This document shows, piece after piece, positions 31,160 to 64,000 of a stretch of 64,000 nt of DNA. The notes below the pieces were generated by a model. It was not told the DNA's origin, did not search any database, and saw nothing but the letters and a program-made list of their open reading frames with translations. This DNA comes from a virus, in the IMG/VR virus record IMGVR_UViG_3300028581_002181, positions 32,001 through 96,000 of that record; one strand, 5' to 3'. The translations under genes and the position numbers were made by a program. Position 1 is the stretch's first letter. Each line of letters opens with the position of its first letter.

Positions 31160-32513
31160 AGAAGTGTACTTCGTATTTGAAAATCGTACCAGATAAAAAT
31201 GTGTTAGGTGTCTGCACTCTTAATCTCACGTTTGCTCCACTGATATCAGCTGTGACTGCATTCACTGGGTTAGAGCCGGTGAATGTGGATGCAATAGATT
31301 GTATGCTGGCTAATCCAGTACCGTTTGCAATCAAAAATTCTCCGATATAACTGTCATTGGCACTATAATGCACGTGAATGGTCACTTTGGCTGCTCTGTA
31401 AATTGCGTGAGCATAAGTCAATGCTGTGTAGGTTTCCAGAGTGCTGCTGGTCACTTGTGTGTATGTGCCTGAATTCATTCCGGTTAAAACTTTTTCCACA
31501 CCAGCTGTGGTGTTGAAAGATGCATTGCCTGCCACTGATAATGTGGCAGTGGGATTGATCATGTTCACTCCCAGTTCACCAAAAGAATTGAAAACTAAAA
31601 ATTTTAAAGATGCTCCACCATCATCTGAAGTGGCAAAACCTATTGCGCCTGGTACTGCACCTGGTGCTACTGGATTGTTTGAGTCTGTTTCTACACTGGC
31701 AAATAAAGCACTGGAAAATCTATAAGCAGTGCCGTCATGTCCACTAACATTCAGTGTGAACAATGGATCGCCTTGTTGCAAAATTGTAGGCACACTGAGA
31801 GTGCCTCTAGACACATTTATTTCAAAACTGTCATTGCTGGTGCCATCAGTTAACGAATTAATTCTTAAACTTTTATTAGAGATTACAGGAGCTTTAATAT
31901 TTAAAGCTGTGCCCAAAGCTGAATTGTTTGCGCCTATTTGTAAGGTGTCCAAACCGTTCAATAGAGTCACTATATTGTCAGTGATCACCACATCGCCGTT
32001 GCTGACTATATTGGTGGCAGGATTAGTGCTCAATAATAATGTGCCTGCTGTGCTGTACACATCTGCTTTGATTCTTTTTTGTATGCCATCCACCATTGCT
32101 GTGGAGTCATCTGCAAACACTGAACCGTTGAGATCTCCTGTGACATCACCGCTCACGTTGCCTGTAAGGTTACCAGTGACGTTGCCAGTCACGTTGCCGC
32201 TCACGTTGCCTGTGACGTTGCCTGTTAAATTTCCTGTGACGTTGCCTGTGAGTGCTCCGTATATGTTTACAAAACGCCCTTCAGCCCAGCGATTGCCCGC
32301 TGCACCTATGTCACGTAAATTGTCTGCATCTGGAGTTACGTCGGTAGTAATGCCTGAAAATGCCACAGAGCCAGTGTCTACGGCTGTGCCGCCCACTGTT
32401 GAACCATCACCCACAAATAATTGTTTGGTATCTGTGGTGTAAATCAGTTCTCCCTGCAATGGAGTGATCAACAGTCTTTGTGCGTTTGTGCCACGTCTTA
32501 ATCTCAATGCCAT
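31140..32513 (-). CDS. Tail fibre-like protein
   Basis: MALRLRRGT...LQGELIYTTDTKQLFVGDG N-terminal motif typical of phage fibre proteins; GNVT repeats; perfect late promoter and AAGGAG RBS. Confidence 0.75.
   Translation of the reverse strand: MALRLRRGTNAQRLLITPLQGELIYTTDTKQLFVGDGSTVGGTAVDTGSVAFSGITTDVTPDADNLRDIGAAGNRWAEGRFVNIYGALTGNVTGNLTGNVTGNVSGNVTGNVTGNLTGNVSGDVTGDLNGSVFADDSTAMVDGIQKRIKADVYSTAGTLLLSTNPATNIVSNGDVVITDNIVTLLNGLDTLQIGANNSALGTALNIKAPVISNKSLRINSLTDGTSNDSFEINVSRGTLSVPTILQQGDPLFTLNVSGHDGTAYRFSSALFASVETDSNNPVAPGAVPGAIGFATSDDGGASLKFLVFNSFGELGVNMINPTATLSVAGNASFNTTAGVEKVLTGMNSGTYTQVTSSTLETYTALTYAHAIYRAAKVTIHVHYSANDSYIGEFLIANGTGLASIQSIASTFTGSNPVNAVTADISGANVRLRVQTPNTFLSGTIFKYEVHFSNFVAY
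32128..32252 (-). repeat. Coding 12-bp-period repeat encoding about 10 copies of G[ND][VL][TS]
   Basis: TGNVTGNLTGNVTGNVSGNVTGNVTGNLTGNVSGDVTGDL; the DNA units differ at synonymous sites. Confidence 0.85.
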
Positions 32514-56711: not shown

Positions 56712-58250
56712 TCATTTATTATGAAGTTTTGATATAAATTGGTAATATTCTTCAGTTTGATTGCTGATGCCGTCCGCCCAAATTTGTTTCTTTGTGAGGT
56801 AATCATGCAATTTATTTTGTAGGTCTTTGGGAGAATTTTTGCTCCAATTATGTAAATTATCTAACCAAACACTGGCCAACTCTGCCCACATATAATCTGG
56901 AAATATGGTCAAAAAATTGTATGAACGCGATACTGTGTTTTTTTCGGAATTATATTTTTCCTTAAGCAGTTGTTTGTGATTCAATTCAATTCCTAAATCA
57001 TACATGTCTTGCCAAAATTTATTTGTTTTTTTTGAACACAATGTATAATGCACACTGATAAAGTCTGCGATGTCATCCAAAGCATAACAAACTTTTTCAT
57101 TGTAATCTGCCCAATCATTGTTGTTTTTTATGGCCATAGTGGCTGCAAATATCGTTGAAACTGAAATGAACAGTGCGTTGGCTTCCATGGGCTCTATAAA
57201 ACCTGCTGCCATGCCCACAGCACAAACGTTTTTTATTGCTGGAGTTTTAAATCTTTTTGGTTCCCACTTGATCAGTCTTGGTTCTTTTAAATTTTTTTTA
57301 TCTATAATTTTTAAAAATTCTTCTTTGGCTTGTGCATCTGTAAAATATTTGTCATTATAGACCAATCCACAACCCATTCTATTCAATAAACCAATTTTAA
57401 ATATCCAACCCATGGAGTGCCAGATGGATTGAGTGTGATTCTTACACTCTTGGTCAGCATCTGAATATTTCAAAGGACTTACCCAAGCACTGTTGGCAGG
57501 ACAATGAGTGTATGCATGATAATCATTGGTTAATTTGCTGATCAATGTTCTGTGAAATCCTGTGGCGTCTATCCAAATATCACTGCTGATGATTGCTCCT
57601 GATTGGAGTTCAACGCTGGCTATGCCTTGTTGATCACAATTTACTTTTGTGATTGTGTCTATGATTTCTTTTACACCACTGGGTTTGGCATGTTTTTCAA
57701 TCAAATAAGGAGCCAGTTTTTCCGCATCAATGTGATAAGCATAGGAAAAATTTTCACTGCCCAAATAACATCCATTGCTATCAAAAGGAGCTTTGTTTTT
57801 GTTCATGAATGAATACAAAGGCACAAATGAATCACTGTAATTTTGTACTTTTTTGTTATTAAATAAATCTATCCATACATCTGTTGCTCGCATGTCTGTA
57901 GGACCTATGGAAACAATGTCTTCTTTAGTGATAGGTTGATTATTAAAAATTTTTTCCAAAGGCTCATTATAGTTGAAAGCAAAATATACATCTTCTTTTT
58001 CATTTATCCAATCTTTAAAACAGTTGGCATATTTAAAAATACTTTGAGTGGCCAGCATCATGTCTTTTTCATCCACACCTATTTCATTCAAAAATCCTTT
58101 CACATGAGGTGTAACACTTTCTCCCACTCCTATGGTAGGAATATGATCACTGTGTAGTAAAATTATTTGATCTGTGGGAAAATGTTTTTTTAAAAAACAC
58201 GCTGCTAGAGCTCCAGCAGTGCCTGCACCTACCACAGTAATGGTTTTCAT
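56712..58250 (-). CDS. Flavin-dependent tryptophan halogenase (PrnA-like) family protein
   Basis: VVGAGTAG, IGVGES, ATQSIFK (catalytic Lys position), YAYHIDA, IDATGF, GWIFKIGL, GFIEPMEA. Confidence 0.88.
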   Translation of the reverse strand: MKTITVVGAGTAGALAACFLKKHFPTDQIILLHSDHIPTIGVGESVTPHVKGFLNEIGVDEKDMMLATQSIFKYANCFKDWINEKEDVYFAFNYNEPLEKIFNNQPITKEDIVSIGPTDMRATDVWIDLFNNKKVQNYSDSFVPLYSFMNKNKAPFDSNGCYLGSENFSYAYHIDAEKLAPYLIEKHAKPSGVKEIIDTITKVNCDQQGIASVELQSGAIISSDIWIDATGFHRTLISKLTNDYHAYTHCPANSAWVSPLKYSDADQECKNHTQSIWHSMGWIFKIGLLNRMGCGLVYNDKYFTDAQAKEEFLKIIDKKNLKEPRLIKWEPKRFKTPAIKNVCAVGMAAGFIEPMEANALFISVSTIFAATMAIKNNNDWADYNEKVCYALDDIADFISVHYTLCSKKTNKFWQDMYDLGIELNHKQLLKEKYNSEKNTVSRSYNFLTIFPDYMWAELASVWLDNLHNWSKNSPKDLQNKLHDYLTKKQIWADGISNQTEEYYQFISKLHNK

Positions 58251-58251
58251 A

Positions 58252-58896
58252 TTATTCTTTTTTGGATTCTTTGTAAAAGTATTCATCTGAATCACCAAAC
58301 ACCCATTTGGCATTCTGTTCACAGTGCCAATATTTGGTGCTCACTTTGAAATCTGGAGTTTTGAGTTTGCCAGGATTGGCACTGGCTTCGTGCCAGATCA
58401 TTCTATTGTTGGGTTGGGCAAAGAATTGACCATTGTCCAATTGACCTATGTTGTGACCCTTGTGTTCAGTGGGCACTTCTGATTCAGTCACATTCACAGT
58501 GTTGGGATCTGTGTGAGCACTGTCCACAGTGAACAAATAAACTCCTGACATCTTTTTACCATCTTTGAGTATCACATCCACTCTGCTGTATTGTAGGTAT
58601 TGTTTCTCAATGATGGTGATGTGATAGCTGAAACCATCCCACAGTTGCAAATAATCCAAAGGCAATTGCTCTTCTGATTTGATATCTGTGCGCCAAGTGA
58701 ATGCACTGATGGGCAGCTTGTCATACAGTGCACCATATTCTGGCAGATATGCTTCTATGTAGAATGCTCTGCGTGGAATAGATTTCAGTGTGACCCAAGT
58801 GCAGGGCACAAATTCACCGTGACCTTTTTGAAAGTCATACAGATATTCTTTTTTGATGTAGGCTTGGATGTAGGGAGTGTTCACCACGAAGTTCAT
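58252..58896 (-). CDS. Conserved hypothetical protein
   Basis: 214-aa ORF (EYGALYDKLPISAF...AQPNNR); function unknown. Confidence 0.7.
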   Translation of the reverse strand: MNFVVNTPYIQAYIKKEYLYDFQKGHGEFVPCTWVTLKSIPRRAFYIEAYLPEYGALYDKLPISAFTWRTDIKSEEQLPLDYLQLWDGFSYHITIIEKQYLQYSRVDVILKDGKKMSGVYLFTVDSAHTDPNTVNVTESEVPTEHKGHNIGQLDNGQFFAQPNNRMIWHEASANPGKLKTPDFKVSTKYWHCEQNAKWVFGDSDEYFYKESKKE

Positions 58897-58932: not shown

Positions 58933-59541
58933 CTAAAATGGCTTTCCACTTTTTTGTAAAATAGAGGACTGTCCTGGGGGTGTAGTTTTTGGTGCTGCAG
59001 TAGCTGGGACTTTAGGGTCTTCAAATTCATTTGGTTTGATATTTAGAGATTTTAGCACAGATGAGAATTGTGTGTTGAAATCTCCATGAGTGATGTTAGT
59101 CATTTTACGTAAAAAATCTTCGATGCTTGTGATTATAGTATTTTTGGCTGAGCCATCTGATGGATTTTCCAATCTAGTTTTGATAGCTGCTGATAATTCT
59201 TTTTCAAAACCTGCGTCCTTGGGTTTACTCTGCATCATTGATCCCACAAACATATTTAGGTCGTCTTTGGTAACACCTATTTTGCTGTAATCTTTTACAC
59301 CAGCGCCTTTGTTCATACTGCCCAATGCTCCACCCAACTTGCTGGCAAAACTGTCTTTGGCAGCATCTGTGTCTTTGGGAGCAGTCATAAATTTATTCAC
59401 AGCAGTGTTGGCTGCACCCACAGCAGTTTTCACAGCACCACCTGCCTGTGCAAATTTATTCATCACTTTGCCCATAGTGCCTGGAGGTTTGGCTGCAGTA
59501 GGTTTGCCCAAAGATGGAGTGACCAATTCATTGATCTTCAT
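58933..59541 (-). CDS. Putative internal virion protein (MKINEL tag)
   Basis: N-terminal MKINELV; Ala/Lys-rich. Confidence 0.55.
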   Translation of the reverse strand: MKINELVTPSLGKPTAAKPPGTMGKVMNKFAQAGGAVKTAVGAANTAVNKFMTAPKDTDAAKDSFASKLGGALGSMNKGAGVKDYSKIGVTKDDLNMFVGSMMQSKPKDAGFEKELSAAIKTRLENPSDGSAKNTIITSIEDFLRKMTNITHGDFNTQFSSVLKSLNIKPNEFEDPKVPATAAPKTTPPGQSSILQKSGKPF

Positions 59542-59546
59542 GGTGA

Positions 59547-59933
59547 TTACTTTTTGTCTTGGTTGAATTTTTTTTCGTTAACTTTTTTGTCTAGAATTTT
59601 GAACAACACTTCTTCGTAGGTTTCCATCTTGCCATCACTGGGCTTGACCACTTGTTGTACAGGTATACTGGTTTCCAGTTCGGCTTGATTGAATTTTTCA
59701 TCGTAGTCCATATAATGATACACAGAACTGATGTAATCAGCGGCTTTGGTGATCTTTGCTTGAACCCAACCTTCCAAACCTTCTGCTTCAGACACGTTCT
59801 TTAACAGTTCATGCAGTTTGATGCTGTACTTGGCCAACTTGTAAAGATCAGCACGTGCCATCTGCACTTCGTGATCCATCTCTGCTTTGTGAGCTGCGTC
59901 TGCCAATCCTTCTTTGATATCTTTGTGTTTCAT
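59547..59933 (-). CDS. Putative internal virion protein (MKHKDIKE tag)
   Basis: ATAAATA at 59945-59939; core DHEVQMARADL...LEGWVQAKITKAADYI. Confidence 0.6.
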   Translation of the reverse strand: MKHKDIKEGLADAAHKAEMDHEVQMARADLYKLAKYSIKLHELLKNVSEAEGLEGWVQAKITKAADYISSVYHYMDYDEKFNQAELETSIPVQQVVKPSDGKMETYEEVLFKILDKKVNEKKFNQDKK

Positions 59934-59941
59934 ATGTGTAT

Positions 59942-60142
59942 TTATCTCTTCATTGGGCCACCGAATATGCTGACGTCCTTCATGTCCAGTGCGTTATCAG
60001 TGGGTTTTTGTTTTTTGGGCTTGGCTTTGGCTGATTTGTAGGCATAAGGATTGGTCACATGGGGGTTTGCTATGCTGGCAATGTTGCCTGCTGATGTGGA
60101 TCCCACAGATGCCACTTCTCTTATGATGTCTCTAATTTTCAT
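59942..60142 (-). CDS. Small putative internal virion protein (MKIRDIIRE tag)
   Basis: ATAAATA at 60164-60158; tag followed by VASVGSTSAGNIAS. Confidence 0.6.
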   Translation of the reverse strand: MKIRDIIREVASVGSTSAGNIASIANPHVTNPYAYKSAKAKPKKQKPTDNALDMKDVSIFGGPMKR

Positions 60143-60177
60143 CGTTTGCCCTTGCTGTATTTATGTGGTGTTTGTGA

Positions 60178-60372
60178 TTATTTGCTAACTTTGGGCACAG
60201 TGATGCCCAGCTTTTTCACTGCTTTGCCGCCTTTGTACAGCCTAGCGTGTGGCACTTTTAAATTCTTTGGACCATATATGTCGCCCACTTTGAATGTGTA
60301 ACTCAAGCGTGCAGGATCCAATCCATAGTGGTAGTCTGCCCATGCTTCATGCACTATATCACGTATCTTCAT
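60178..60372 (-). CDS. Small basic putative internal virion protein (MKIRDIVHE tag)
   Basis: Tag; ATGA coupling. Confidence 0.6.
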   Translation of the reverse strand: MKIRDIVHEAWADYHYGLDPARLSYTFKVGDIYGPKNLKVPHARLYKGGKAVKKLGITVPKVSK

Positions 60373-60713
60373 TTTTTTGTCTTCACGTTTTTAGCAGCAC
60401 CACGACGTTCCGGATTGGGATCTTCACGTCTTTTTCTTGAGGCTGCTGATGCACGCCCTTTCTTGCCCAATGCATGTGCTTTGGCTTGCGGCAAACATTT
60501 GGGCTTGCCTTCTTTGCTGCTGCCTCTGGCACAATCACCTTTGATTTTGCCGTCTGGACCAAATCTCACCCACTTCTGTTTAAACCATTTTTTTAAATCT
60601 TCTTCCATCTCCTTCACGGGCACACAGTTGGGCACCATTCTGTTGCCTTTGGGTTTCATGCCGCGCTGTACATAACCTTGCCAGCACTTCTCTAAAATCT
60701 CTCGGTATTTCAT
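60369..60713 (-). CDS. Basic putative internal virion protein (MKYREILE tag)
   Basis: Start reassigned to 60713; modules KCWQGY...VPNCVP and DLKKWFKQKWV...GKPKCLP. Confidence 0.6.
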   Translation of the reverse strand: MKYREILEKCWQGYVQRGMKPKGNRMVPNCVPVKEMEEDLKKWFKQKWVRFGPDGKIKGDCARGSSKEGKPKCLPQAKAHALGKKGRASAASRKRREDPNPERRGAAKNVKTKK

Positions 60714-60714
60714 T

Positions 60715-60876
60715 CTATTTGCTCTTGTTGCCCCAGTTGGCTGCACCTTTTTTACGACACTGAACCAACGCACCTGATGCATAGGCACTGGGCCAAACTT
60801 TATATCTGGATTTGACCTTGCGATAGCAGGCGTCCTGTTTTTCTTGCAGACCTTGAGTGATTTCTTTGAGCTTCAT
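60715..60876 (-). CDS. Small basic protein (53 aa, MKLKEIT tag), not in the ORF track
   Basis: Translated by hand: MKLKEITQGLQEKQDACYRKVKSRYKVWPSAYASGALVQCRKKGAANWGNKSK; ATAAATA at 60901-60895. Confidence 0.7.
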   Translation of the reverse strand: MKLKEITQGLQEKQDACYRKVKSRYKVWPSAYASGALVQCRKKGAANWGNKSK

Positions 60877-60893
60877 AATAGTGTTTTACACTA

Positions 60894-61349
60894 CTATTTA
60901 TTGCGTTTACGACCTTGACGCATGTTTATCTGCCAGTGTGCCAGTTGCTTTTTGCGTGCAGATGCTGTTTTAGAACTGCGTATCCGTTTCAATTGTGTGA
61001 TGGTAGCGCCTTTGGGTATGCCTGCTCGTTTGGAATCACCAGGTCTACCTGGTCCTCGGCCATCCGCAAAGTTCTCATCCACGTTGCCCAATGGACTGGC
61101 AATGGGATCACGCATTTGAGCATATCTGTTCATGTCCAACACAATTTGTGCTTTGAGACTCACATGTGGAATGTCTGTTTTGATCAGCAGTTTTAAATCT
61201 TCATCCGACAAAGATTTCAAATGTTGACGCAATGCCTGACCTTTCACAGCTGGCAAAGCCTTGTCTTTGAATGGTGTGTATTGAGTTCGTAGATCATCTA
61301 TGTCAGATTGTTTAAGTTTATGCTTAAACACTATTTCACGAATCTTCAT
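60894..61349 (-). CDS. Basic putative internal virion protein (MKIREIV tag)
   Basis: Tag; C-terminal Arg/Lys-rich module after VDE (NFADGRGPGRPG...). Confidence 0.6.
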   Translation of the reverse strand: MKIREIVFKHKLKQSDIDDLRTQYTPFKDKALPAVKGQALRQHLKSLSDEDLKLLIKTDIPHVSLKAQIVLDMNRYAQMRDPIASPLGNVDENFADGRGPGRPGDSKRAGIPKGATITQLKRIRSSKTASARKKQLAHWQINMRQGRKRNK

Positions 61350-61353
61350 TGAA

Positions 61354-62085
61354 TTACACCAGTTTTAATTTGCGAGCCTGTCTGCGGATCTCACCTGGTT
61401 TAACATCTCGGGTAGTGTTCTGTTTGGTAATAATTCCCACACCTGCTGCATCTTCCACAGGCACTTTTTCTTTTTGTTTTTGTTTATGATTGTATTGTTC
61501 CAATGCTTGTGACACCTTGCTGAGTGGATGCTTGTTGGCTTGATACAGTATGCCATAGCCACCTTTGCTCTGCCATTTGTCTATGTTGATGGGACGATCG
61601 TCTATTAAAATATTTTTAACACCGTTTTTGACAGCATAGGTTTCTTTCACACCAGTCACAATGATAACATCTGGCTTCACTATGTTTTTGCCAATCCATA
61701 CTTTTTTGTAGTAACCACTGTTTTCTGTGTCACCTCTCAAAGGCGAAGTGAGTATGCTGTACTGCCCACCTGTGAATTTCTTGATCATCTCGATCAATGT
61801 GTCTGCACTGCTGAACTTGGGTAGATGTGCAAAAAAATCTGTGCCTGCTATTCTGTCAATCACATCTTGGCGTAGGTCTTTGGTCTTGTCAGATGTCAGT
61901 TGTTTCCAGTGATCCACACCGTACAAACGTTCTACTCCACCAAAGAAATCTGCAATCACGCCATCCATATCCAAATACACAATGGGTTTGACATTAGATT
62001 GTTCTGTCATGTGTTTATTATACAACTGTTTGTTGTATAAATCAACAGATATTTTTTGGTTAGATAGTATTTCGGTAATCTTCAT
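61354..62085 (-). CDS. 5'(3')-deoxyribonucleotidase-like HAD hydrolase with MKITEIL tag
   Basis: YLDMDGVIADF, ILTSP, K..W, ILIDDR..NI..W...GG.GI. Confidence 0.8.
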   Translation of the reverse strand: MKITEILSNQKISVDLYNKQLYNKHMTEQSNVKPIVYLDMDGVIADFFGGVERLYGVDHWKQLTSDKTKDLRQDVIDRIAGTDFFAHLPKFSSADTLIEMIKKFTGGQYSILTSPLRGDTENSGYYKKVWIGKNIVKPDVIIVTGVKETYAVKNGVKNILIDDRPINIDKWQSKGGYGILYQANKHPLSKVSQALEQYNHKQKQKEKVPVEDAAGVGIITKQNTTRDVKPGEIRRQARKLKLV

Positions 62086-62246
62086 TAGTCTTTTTCACAA
62101 TTGGCACAGTGACAGCGTCTGCACACTTCAATCACCCATTCTCGTGTCTTTTTGTCGCCAATATGTTCGCTTTCTTTTCTTTTCAAAGTTTTTTTGCAAT
62201 GACTATCATTGCCACAATTGATGCAATAGGGTTTTTCCTTAGCCAT
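62085..62246 (-). CDS. Small Cys-rich (zinc-finger-like) protein
   Basis: Start reassigned to MAKEKP (62246): CINC..H..C and C..C.C..C. Confidence 0.5.
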   Translation of the reverse strand: MAKEKPYCINCGNDSHCKKTLKRKESEHIGDKKTREWVIEVCRRCHCANCEKD

Positions 62247-62250
62247 AAAT

Positions 62251-63060
62251 TTAAGATCTGTCTTGTTTGGGACTTTTTCTTTGTTTGAATTTTTTATCAG
62301 TGGAACACCAATATCTACCATAGCTTTCATTGGATTCAGCCTGCACATATCCTTTTTTTTCATAGTCCGGCCAAGACTTTTGTGGAATCTTAATTATTCC
62401 TTGTTTGTCGTTAGGATTAATCACCATGATCAATTCATTATCACTGTTGTAATCTTTAACAGGTTGAACAATTTTTTTTGCAATTTTATCTTTGAAACTT
62501 AAATTCTCTTTTTTGTAACCTGCGGGCATGAACTTGGCATATCTGTCTTGCATGTTTTTCACTGTGTTTAAATCTCTGCCTGAATCCAAACTCAATCTAG
62601 CCACTTCGATGTCTTGTTTGATATTCTGTATCAACTGGGCATCACCTTTTTGATTGGCCATATCCAACGCTTTGTTCATGGCTTGTATCACTGGCACATT
62701 ATTATTGATAGCATTATTAATGGAACCTATGCCTGCCACACTGCCCACAATAATTCCAGCCACAGCCATTTTTTGTAACCAATCTTTTAATCCTTCGTCT
62801 AATTCTGTGCTTTCAAAATGTCGGGAGTAAGGACGACCTTTGGCAAATTCTCTACCATAGCTGAACTCCTGTCTCTGTGCTAATTCTTTGGCTGAAAAAC
62901 CTGGACGTATAACTCCTCCAGCATGTTGTTTGGCAAAATCTTCTCTGTTCTTGAAGAATGCTCGGATTTCATCTGGGGTCATCATGTCCAACTTGGCTTT
63001 GGTCTTGGCCATGCTGCTGGGCAATCTAGAACCTTCTGATATGATGTGTCTTAGCTTCAT
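62251..63060 (-). CDS. Putative internal virion protein (MKLRHIISE tag), multi-module
   Basis: Tag; internal LDE|GLK, hydrophobic VAGIIVGSVAGIG, terminal NE|SYGRYWC module. Confidence 0.6.
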   Translation of the reverse strand: MKLRHIISEGSRLPSSMAKTKAKLDMMTPDEIRAFFKNREDFAKQHAGGVIRPGFSAKELAQRQEFSYGREFAKGRPYSRHFESTELDEGLKDWLQKMAVAGIIVGSVAGIGSINNAINNNVPVIQAMNKALDMANQKGDAQLIQNIKQDIEVARLSLDSGRDLNTVKNMQDRYAKFMPAGYKKENLSFKDKIAKKIVQPVKDYNSDNELIMVINPNDKQGIIKIPQKSWPDYEKKGYVQAESNESYGRYWCSTDKKFKQRKSPKQDRS

Positions 63061-63275
63061 TTCTTTCTTCCTCTGAATTTATTCTGCAATGACCCAGTCA
63101 TGTAAGGCAGACTGAACCACAATTTGAACCAATCTGGATCGCCTGGTTTTAGGCCTAATTCTTTTTCTTTGTCCTTCAAAGCCTGTGCTGTGTGACTGAT
63201 ATTTTCCACAGACGGCATAGTATTGCTGTAAGTGTCTATGCCTGCCAGTTTTTTCAATTTATCAATCTCGTTCAT
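63057..63275 (-). CDS. Small late protein
   Basis: ATAAATA at 63286-63280; LKKLAGI motif. Confidence 0.6.
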   Translation of the reverse strand: MNEIDKLKKLAGIDTYSNTMPSVENISHTAQALKDKEKELGLKPGDPDWFKLWFSLPYMTGSLQNKFRGRKK

Positions 63276-63282
63276 ATGATAT

Positions 63283-63849
63283 TTATGCTGGTTGTTTTAA
63301 ATTTTGACGTATTTTTTGATATATCTCTGTGGCTGTTTTTTCATCTGCAGGAATAGTGGTTAAAAAACTACGTTTAGCACCTTGCACAGCATACTCTCTA
63401 GCTCTGCTGGCACTCACACCTGCTGCGCCTTCTGCATCTGGATCTCTCATTCCAGCATTCACTGTTCTTATGCTGTTGAATTGGTAGTCTTTGCCATTGT
63501 ATTTGTTCAGTAATTCATCAAATTGTTGCACTCTGTCTGATCCCGCCACATATATGATGTCTTGATAGCCCATGCTTTCTAATTTTTTCATTGCATCAAT
63601 AATGGTCTTTACTCCAGCATCTCCCACTGTGACTGTGGGGAACATTTTTTGAGCATACAGTACTTTGTCCGCAAAACTGAGAGGATTTGATTTGGCATCT
63701 TGAGTGTGTGTTAAAAATAAAAAGTGATCGCCTGGTTGAGCAGAGATGGCGTCTATTAATTTTTTATGACCAGTGGTGGGTGGATTCATTCTGCCGTAAG
63801 CAAATGCGGCAATTTTAGGCGCTGGCTGACTTATTTCTACGAGTCTCAT
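63283..63849 (-). CDS. HxGH nucleotidyltransferase (cytidyltransferase/NMNAT-like)
   Basis: YGRMNPPTTGH, NPLSF..K, VAGSDR, SASRAR; N-terminus MRLVEIS. Confidence 0.8.
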   Translation of the reverse strand: MRLVEISQPAPKIAAFAYGRMNPPTTGHKKLIDAISAQPGDHFLFLTHTQDAKSNPLSFADKVLYAQKMFPTVTVGDAGVKTIIDAMKKLESMGYQDIIYVAGSDRVQQFDELLNKYNGKDYQFNSIRTVNAGMRDPDAEGAAGVSASRAREYAVQGAKRSFLTTIPADEKTATEIYQKIRQNLKQPA

Positions 63850-64000
63850 TGTGCATTCTTCACTGGATGTTTGGACAGTCCTTGCACGATCTTGTTGGTG
63901 AGGGTCACTCTGTCCTCTGAATTAATGATCTTTTCTGACTTGCCGTTGATTTTAAATTTTTCAAAGTATTCGTTGATTGCTTTATCCACACATCCACCCC
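63846..64000 (-). CDS. C-terminal fragment of a protein truncated by the window edge
   Basis: Open frame ...CVDKAINEYFEKFKING...KNAQ*, with TGA overlapping the ATG at 63849. Confidence 0.6.
   Translation of the reverse strand, partial: GGCVDKAINEYFEKFKINGKSEKIINSEDRVTLTNKIVQGLSKHPVKNAQ

Follow-up and report, generated by a model that had tools for sequence, protein, structure and literature searches.

The described systems closest to the one reported here are the short N-terminal peptides of the head proteins of bacteriophage T4. The capsid-targeting sequence of T4 is MKTYQEFIAE (PMC8442874); its residues 4 and 7 act in targeting and its residues 8 and 10 in processing, and the head protease gp21 cuts after L/I-x-E (PMC9026906). 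The vertex protein of the shell, gp24, belongs to the T4 head proteins whose propeptides are 10–20 residues long (PMC5694885). In the T4 record it begins with MAKINELLRE followed by STTT and is annotated as cleaved by gp21. Head-internal ejection proteins that are cut after Glu by a gp21-related protease are also found in phiKZ-like giant phages such as SPN3US and 201phi2-1 (PMC5694885). Here we describe an array of genes at the end of a stretch of 64,000 nucleotides of viral DNA (positions 32001–96000 of the IMG/VR record IMGVR_UViG_3300028581_002181; in the following, the window). Most proteins of this array begin with a common short peptide, hereafter the tag, which resembles the T4 peptides.

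From the sequences and from homologues we suggest that the array is a late cluster of T4-type tagged proteins that would be loaded into the prohead of a phage of the T4 superfamily, and we give this reading a probability of about 0.7. The most likely fate of the tagged proteins would then be to be packed into the virus head. The source of the DNA is an uncultured marine giant phage of the T4 superfamily with a genome of roughly 350 kb, of which the 116-kb record is estimated to cover ∼32%. The family B DNA polymerase (PolB) of the record finds its best matches in jumbo phages of the T4 superfamily (Phosso, Atu_ph07, Rak2-like) with 43–49% identity, and T4-type baseplate wedge genes and tail fibre genes are also present. 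A search of the GenBank phages at near-identity with the array gave no match, and there is no close relative among them; tblastn with the 269-amino acid (aa) protein of the array and with a member of the 66-aa family described below gave no match either. An Atlas search with the 269-aa protein returned unrelated folds only, all with low confidence, and in the searchable literature we found no description of this phenomenon for marine phages.

The shared peptide and its promoters

The genes of the record were called in a crude way: each was started at its first ATG, and candidates were scored by codon usage and then chosen greedily, which gave 126 genes. On the minus strand between positions 58933 and 64178, 11 of 13 consecutive genes begin with the loose pattern M-[KR]-hydrophobic-x-[DEH]-hydrophobic, as compared to none of the 113 other genes (Fisher p = 4e-14). 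The strict pattern MK[IL]x[DE][IL] is present in six of the 13 array genes and in none of the 113 others (Fisher p = 3.5e-7); both p-values are generous because the patterns were chosen with the data already in view. In a six-frame scan of the whole record the strict motif led by an ATG appears at those six gene starts and nowhere else. The ten N-termini which a preliminary description of this DNA had listed are all present at their genes, from MKINELV at 59541 to MRLVEIS at 63849, and the motif is not equally common at the starts of other genes.

It had also been stated that the tagged proteins are otherwise unrelated, and for the ten tagged proteins that were compared, together with one untagged protein, this is borne out. 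With the first 12 residues removed the best pairwise E-value was 0.09, that is, no similarity is detectable; the MKAKEF protein starting at 64178 was left out of this comparison. In the related genome G001 (114 kb) five tagged genes are grouped together and none of the remaining 120 genes is tagged. In 17 related loci, for which the 269-aa protein served as the query, the tagged genes are likewise confined to the array and to its strand. A further 65 IMG/VR loci, found with the 66-aa family, contain 181 tagged genes among 788 called genes, and all 181 are on the strand of the seed gene.

The conserved unit is the peptide and not the DNA, because synonymous codons vary and the upstream DNA differs. 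Codons 2–7 show 55% nucleotide identity across the tags, the synonymous codons vary broadly with no single codon fixed, and the DNA upstream of the array genes is not alike. The consensus over 40 distinct tags reads M-K-I-(R/N/K)-E-I-(I/T/V). Related genomes have other versions, for example, MRLxELF or MRAxEFIxE, and each version is common to all array genes of its genome. Such a concerted change of dialect fits a signal which is read by one co-evolving partner.

The heptamer ATAAATA is found at 21 sites in the 116-kb record as compared to 56 expected. At 18 of these sites it is located 5–33 nucleotides (nt) upstream of a gene start in sense direction, and the genes behind it comprise the gp6-like and gp25-like baseplate wedge genes, tail fibre genes and virion structural genes. 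This placement is the behaviour of a T4-type late promoter core. The same pattern repeats in G001 and in a second related genome, G006. As the motif is depleted two- to three-fold in these three sequences and is found almost only 5–35 nt before gene starts, it is usable as a marker of late genes for the clade. Four of the 21 sites are in the array on the minus strand; these are the four cores noted previously, all of which are real, exactly at the positions then given, and conform to the T4-type late promoter of this phage.

The tag, the T4 propeptides and the capsid cut site

In the array, MKIRDIIRE, MKIRDIVHE, and MKLRHIISE conform to the T4 capsid-targeting pattern, and two tags of the wider family (MKINEIIQE and MKIRELLET) are almost identical to the gp24 peptide. 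The likeness to the gp24 propeptide is near residue-for-residue, with K-I-x-E-L/I-L/I-x-E and then Ser or Thr; however, this peptide is carried by a shell protein in T4 and by about a dozen non-shell proteins here. With the T4 capsid-targeting sequence the tag shares that it is a short N-terminal peptide on otherwise unrelated, mostly small and basic proteins, that M-K and two hydrophobic positions 3–4 residues apart are followed by hydrophobic-x-Glu, and that the genes are late and their content is variable between relatives. The consensus here is, on the other hand, one residue shorter and based on Ile/Leu instead of aromatic residues. The similarity to the phiKZ-like giants is more limited, since their propeptides are mostly longer than 100 residues, their cut motif is A/S-x-E and they form a separate phage lineage (PMC5694885).

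Most tags contain [IL]-x-E at positions 3–5, with D or H at position 5 in a few. When the tagged families are defined by the module that comes after the tag, a second Glu is found at positions 8–10 in 10 of the 18 families, as compared to 12% of the untagged genes.

The strongest single piece of evidence for head loading comes from the gene at 59942–60142 and its more than 200 metagenomic homologues. In the alignment of this 66-aa family the tag and a spacer of 0–5 residues precede an invariant Glu, after which comes x-A-T-A-G-A-T-S-A-G-N-I-A. Members of the family are also encoded by three larger related genomes, G006 (238 kb), G007 (210 kb), and G008 (188 kb), which are estimated to be 53–67% complete. 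All three encode Peptidase_S77, the T4-type head protease, and a Gp23 capsid protein, both above the Pfam cut-offs. Among the three the gene order was compared in G006, where it matches the record (DnaJ, deformylase, ClpA-like, array, PolB) and where PolB is 68% identical. The capsid proteins of G006–G008 read YLSE↓SATAGATSAGNVAT, or in a longer quote YLSE↓SATAGATSAGNVATL (the arrow marks the predicted cut). In an alignment with the gp23 proteins of T4 and of the cyanophage S-SM1 the Glu of YLSE falls on Glu65 of T4 (E65↓A66), where gp23 is known to be cut during maturation. In G006 and G007 the sequence E↓SATAGATSAG(N/S)IA is present in the small tagged proteins. Hence it appears that the tagged protein copies the predicted cut site of the capsid protein together with the dozen residues with which the mature capsid protein begins, which is hard to explain unless one protease sees both proteins.

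The loci behind this comparison are 59942–60142 in the window and 66420–66611 and 149195–150373 in G006 (L109, L113). Proteins of the 66-aa family could be competitors or regulators of the head protease, or ligands of the capsid interior. The T4 protein gp61.1 (54 aa) has the same build as the gene of the window: as checked in the T4 sequence, its start is like the capsid-targeting sequence, a TTSGAV segment that resembles the N-arm of gp23 comes next, and the tail is Lys-rich. Outside of these short motifs, however, there is no significant identity, and the T4 gene is located beside the primase gene and not in an array.

In G006 tagged genes are also found outside the array (145598–145846, 136214–137467, and 236012–236392). 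One tagged gene of this genome is located between the portal and scaffold genes, which is the position of gp67 in T4, and three of the four tagged genes outside the array have late promoters.

Based on these comparisons we propose that each array protein has an N-terminal propeptide of ∼7–12 residues, M-K-I-x-E-I-hydrophobic and often then x-E. If T4 is taken as the model, the tag would bind to the scaffolding core and would carry the protein into the prohead. There a T4-type protease (gp21, S77) would cut after Glu in a hydrophobic-x-Glu context, a step for which the support by the sequences is strong. The mature proteins that result would for the most part be small and very basic, and would be located alongside the DNA. 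The tag would be portable, and two ordinary enzymes, a predicted deoxyribonucleotidase and a predicted cytidylyltransferase, may have gained it.

Cargo of the array and its cyanophage homologues

The genes and promoter cores of the array are listed in Table 1. The isoelectric point (pI) is 9.2–10.6 in 10 of the 11 array proteins analysed (nine of ten tagged), and it exceeds 9 in 14% of the other genes. The T4 internal proteins are likewise basic (PMC9026906).

Table 1. Genes and ATAAATA promoter cores of the array, in coordinates of the window; all are on the minus strand.
Position	Feature	Length (aa)	N-terminus	Remarks
58933–59541	tagged gene	202	MKINELV	Lys/Ala/Gly-rich, low-complexity; pI 9.7; no Pfam or PHROG match
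59547–59933	tagged gene	128	MKHKDIKE	DHEV...WVQAKIT module; sole acidic member, pI 6.0
59939–59945	ATAAATA			6 nt before start 59933
59942–60142	tagged gene	66	MKIRDIIRE	then capsid N-arm-like segment STSAGNIAS, then Lys-rich tail
60158–60164	ATAAATA			16 nt before start 60142
60178–60372	tagged gene	64	MKIRDIVHE	ADYHYG module; pI 9.9
60369–60713	tagged gene	114	MKYREILE	true start is ATG at 60713; pI 10.3
60715–60876	tagged gene	53	MKLKEIT	DUF5872-type module
60895–60901	ATAAATA			19 nt before start 60876
60894–61349	tagged gene	151	MKIREIV	ENFADGRGPG module at C-terminus
61354–62085	tagged gene	243	MKITEIL	NT5C-type 5'(3')-deoxyribonucleotidase domain (predicted); C-terminal EDAAGVG...KQNTT module
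62085–62363	untagged open reading frame			small, Cys-rich, zinc-ribbon-like; overlaps 3' end of the 269-aa gene by 113 nt
62251–63060	tagged gene	269	MKLRHIISE	mostly disordered; pI 9.6; seed for related loci
63057–63275	untagged conserved gene	72	MNEIDKLKKLAGI	own late promoter
63280–63286	ATAAATA			5 nt before start 63275 (untagged 72-aa gene)
63283–63849	tagged gene	188	MRLVEIS	cytidylyltransferase-family enzyme (predicted); homologue of cyanophage T4-GC190
63846–64000	3' part of eleventh tagged gene	110	MKAKEF	start at 64178, past the window edge

Two of the cargos are predicted to be enzymes. The protein encoded at 61354–62085 matches phrog_2643 (E-value 5e-24) and contains the motif DMDGV of the HAD DxDG type, with a Pfam NT5C score of 24.2 bits, just under the cut-off of 24.8 bits. 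In this protein the tag is within a 32-residue N-terminal extension ahead of the nucleotidase catalytic domain. The protein encoded at 63283–63849 matches phrog_3041 (E-value 6e-48) and shares 36% identity with the enzyme of S-RIM8 (E-value 2e-37), and its region of the nucleotidyltransferase H-x-G-H type motif reads GRMNPPTTGH. Here the tag is an extension of about 11 residues before the catalytic domain. The cultured relative GAP32 has an orthologue of the cytidylyltransferase without the tag and has no array; because this orthologue is untagged, we regard the tag as an add-on.

Several array proteins correspond to one copy each of small modules which are joined in series in the gp114 of cyanophages. 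The DHEV...WVQAKIT module of 59547–59933 is shared with cyanophage gp114 (T4-GC119), with an E-value of 6e-7 to S-RIM8 gp114. Two modules, CWxGY...VPNCVP and KKWF...KPKC...RREDPNP, are present in 60369–60713, and the protein of 60715–60876 matches phrog_727 (E-value 3e-22) and scores 20 bits with Pfam DUF5872, below the cut-off of 27.5 bits. The ENFADG(K/R)GPG module, which forms the C-terminus of 60894–61349, is a stand-alone tagged gene of 67 aa in the related locus L006, and the EDAAGVG module of the nucleotidase C-terminus is stand-alone and tagged in L010 and G001. Across the clade at least 18 cargo families are tagged, two of which are predicted enzymes, and the gene content of the array turns over fast between close relatives. 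The plug-and-play locus envisaged in the preliminary description fits these data well, as at least 18 families have the tag and the modules are either stand-alone with a tag or fused without it. The scale differs from that of T4, where there are three such proteins as compared to 11 tagged genes in one array here and at least 18 cargo families in the clade. The cargo differs as well in including a predicted deoxyribonucleotidase and a predicted cytidylyltransferase.

Homologues of some of the array proteins have been detected in cyanophage virions. Mass spectrometry of purified S-SM1 virions gave 25 counts for the putative cytidylyltransferase T4-GC190 and 13 counts for T4-GC119 (PMC3037559 Table S8, Sullivan et al. 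2010). By the GenBank notes T4-GC119 is the family of PHM1_110, SSM1_115, and 'gp114', whose gene is between two terminase genes. SSM1_115 contains segments homologous to 60715–60876 (72% identity, E-value 6e-24) and to 60369–60713 (E-value 9e-13). Together, the virion-detected S-SM1 proteins cover homologues of three array genes, namely 60369–60713, 60715–60876, and 63283–63849. The cyanophages thus share with the array the DUF5872, CWxGY...VPNCVP, KPKC...RREDPNP, and DHEV...WVQAKIT modules as well as the enzyme; in the cyanophages, however, the modules are fused in one protein of 230–700 aa between the terminase genes, whereas here they are encoded by separate tagged genes. The cytidylyltransferases of S-SM1 and S-RIM8 begin with MKKFSAFL(N/T)E, in S-SM1 MKKFSAFLNE, which is a T4-like targeting pattern, and at the aligned cut site the capsid protein of S-SM1 reads ILTE.

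Around the cytidylyltransferase gene of S-SM1 (NC_015282, 146446–151332; L029) there is a cluster of virion-detected proteins, T4-GC1453, 190, 1454, and 1455, in which the starts MKKFSAFLNE, MNLNELPD, and MLSFKELQE are found. This cluster looks like the cyanophage counterpart of the array. Its Lys/Ala/Gly-rich virion-detected proteins resemble array gene 58933–59541 in composition.

The untagged 72-aa gene at 63057–63275 is kept in all relatives, and its start (MNEIDKLKKLAGI; in G006 MELSELKRLAGI) and a PxWFxLWF motif are conserved. The open reading frame at 62085–62363 begins at a run of eight A residues, but translation probably starts further downstream, at a Met near 62246. A frameshift at this A8 run that would join the 269-aa gene to the overlapping 92-aa reading frame was considered and rejected, as the orthologue in L002 ends at the identical stop. 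Upstream the array is adjoined by the genes of DnaJ, peptide deformylase and a 748-aa ClpA-type ATPase (L023:1544–5124, corresponding to window coordinates 65344–68924, past the window), and the position of these genes relative to the array is kept in G001 and G006. Directly downstream, at 56712–58896 of the window, a gene of the tryptophan-halogenase family and a gene matching a PHROG family annotated as 'ferredoxin' are located.

Alternative readings and implications

Several observations weigh against head loading by the tag. The second Glu at positions 8–10 is missing from about half of the tags, those on the two enzymes among them; in these proteins cleavage would take place only after Glu5, or there would be none. 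The T4-GC119 protein of S-SM1 (SSM1_115) starts without such a tag, and therefore presence in the virion does not need the tag. In addition, detection in the virion does not show location inside the head. Neither a head protease nor a capsid gene was found in the 116-kb record or in five related fragments, and a search of five more contigs (37–43 kb, 9–12% complete) also revealed no head protease. As the record and its nearest fragments lack these genes, the link to the protease depends on relatives with a PolB that is ∼68% identical. Finally, the strict and the loose pattern were both defined post hoc from the same data, and the gene calls, for which the first ATG was always taken, are crude.

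It is possible, though in our view rather doubtful, that the tag loads the head and that the cargo consists of core or DNA-condensing components like IPII, IPIII, gp67, and gp68 of T4 instead of injected effectors. Such components would neutralise charge or would shape the packaged DNA, and this explanation departs from the first reading only in the function of the cargo. It would be in agreement with the pI of 9.2–10.6 in 10 of 11 proteins, many of which are short, Lys-rich and of low complexity, with the cyanophages that string the same modules into one virion protein, and with the G006 tagged gene in the position of T4 gp67. However, two of the cargos are folded enzymes, and a content that turns over fast is seen more typically in arms-race genes than in core parts of the structure. 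A role of the tag outside the head would be that of a recognition signal for the ClpA-like unfoldase of the phage, which would allow timed degradation or remodelling instead of head loading. ClpA-type ATPases read N-terminal signals, and DnaJ, deformylase and the ATPase adjoin the array in an order that recurs in G001 and G006. We consider this unlikely, as it leaves the matches to the gp24 propeptide and to the capsid cut site, the late promoters, and the virion-detected homologues of the cyanophages, phages not known to carry ClpA, unexplained, and in G001 the ClpA gene is ∼8 kb away from the array.

The two remaining explanations deny a function to the peptide as such. The shared start (AUG AAA AUU ...) might be an optimum for translation initiation and early elongation in genes that lack a Shine–Dalgarno sequence, with the likeness of the peptides being a by-product. 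A Lys as second residue and A/U-rich early codons favour expression, and the array genes have no clear Shine–Dalgarno sequence. Nevertheless, the motif is found in none of the 113 other genes, highly expressed structural genes included, positions 5 and 6 (Glu, Ile) are conserved as much as positions 2 and 3 while the synonymous codons vary, and relatives use another consensus genome by genome (MRLxELF, MRAxEFIxE). Because the tag is confined to the array and positions 5–6 are conserved amid free synonymous variation, a translation optimum is excluded as the main cause, and we rate this explanation as very unlikely. Modules which switch between stand-alone and fused forms and close relatives which differ in gene content could suggest that cassette shuffling has left a functionless recombination remnant at the gene boundaries. 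However, codons 2–7 are only 55% identical and the flanking DNA is unrelated, and the peptide is kept over large distances with more than 200 homologues of one family. Since no element is conserved at the DNA level, we give a recombination scar hardly any credence.

Thus, we favour the reading that the tag is a head-loading signal of T4 type. The preliminary description had seen in it a T4-style tag by which late proteins are packaged and delivered at infection, forming a reservoir of anti-defence or takeover effectors. Its first part has gained support from the late promoters, the likeness to gp24, the second Glu, the copy of the capsid cut site, the protease of the relatives and the cyanophage homologues in virions, so that the interpretation as a whole is supported in part. 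An anti-defence role of the cargo is a guess, and a DNA-condensing or head-core role could equally well fit the composition of the cargo. Tentatively, one might extend the reading to the whole clade, in which the tag would be a general address label: with seven to ten codons at the 5' end of a gene its product would be packed and injected with the DNA. The arrays might then, and this we regard as similarly speculative, be a catalogue of first-minute effectors, including nucleotide enzymes and mimics of the capsid cut site that tune the head protease.

As a mechanism this has been known from T4 since the 1990s, and variable loci of internal proteins have been described; the array is larger in scale and has enzymes among its cargo. 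If the tag is a head-loading label, a common origin of these tags from the propeptide of the capsid vertex protein or of the major capsid protein is suggested, and those proteins of uncultured giant phages which are packaged, and possibly injected, become readable from sequence. For this clade this would yield at least 18 protein families, comprising two predicted enzymes and widespread small basic modules which are also present in cyanophage virions. It would give a short list of candidates for counter-defence tests, and it would provide a candidate function for T4-GC119 and T4-GC190 of the cyanophages, two proteins that have lacked an explanation since 2010.

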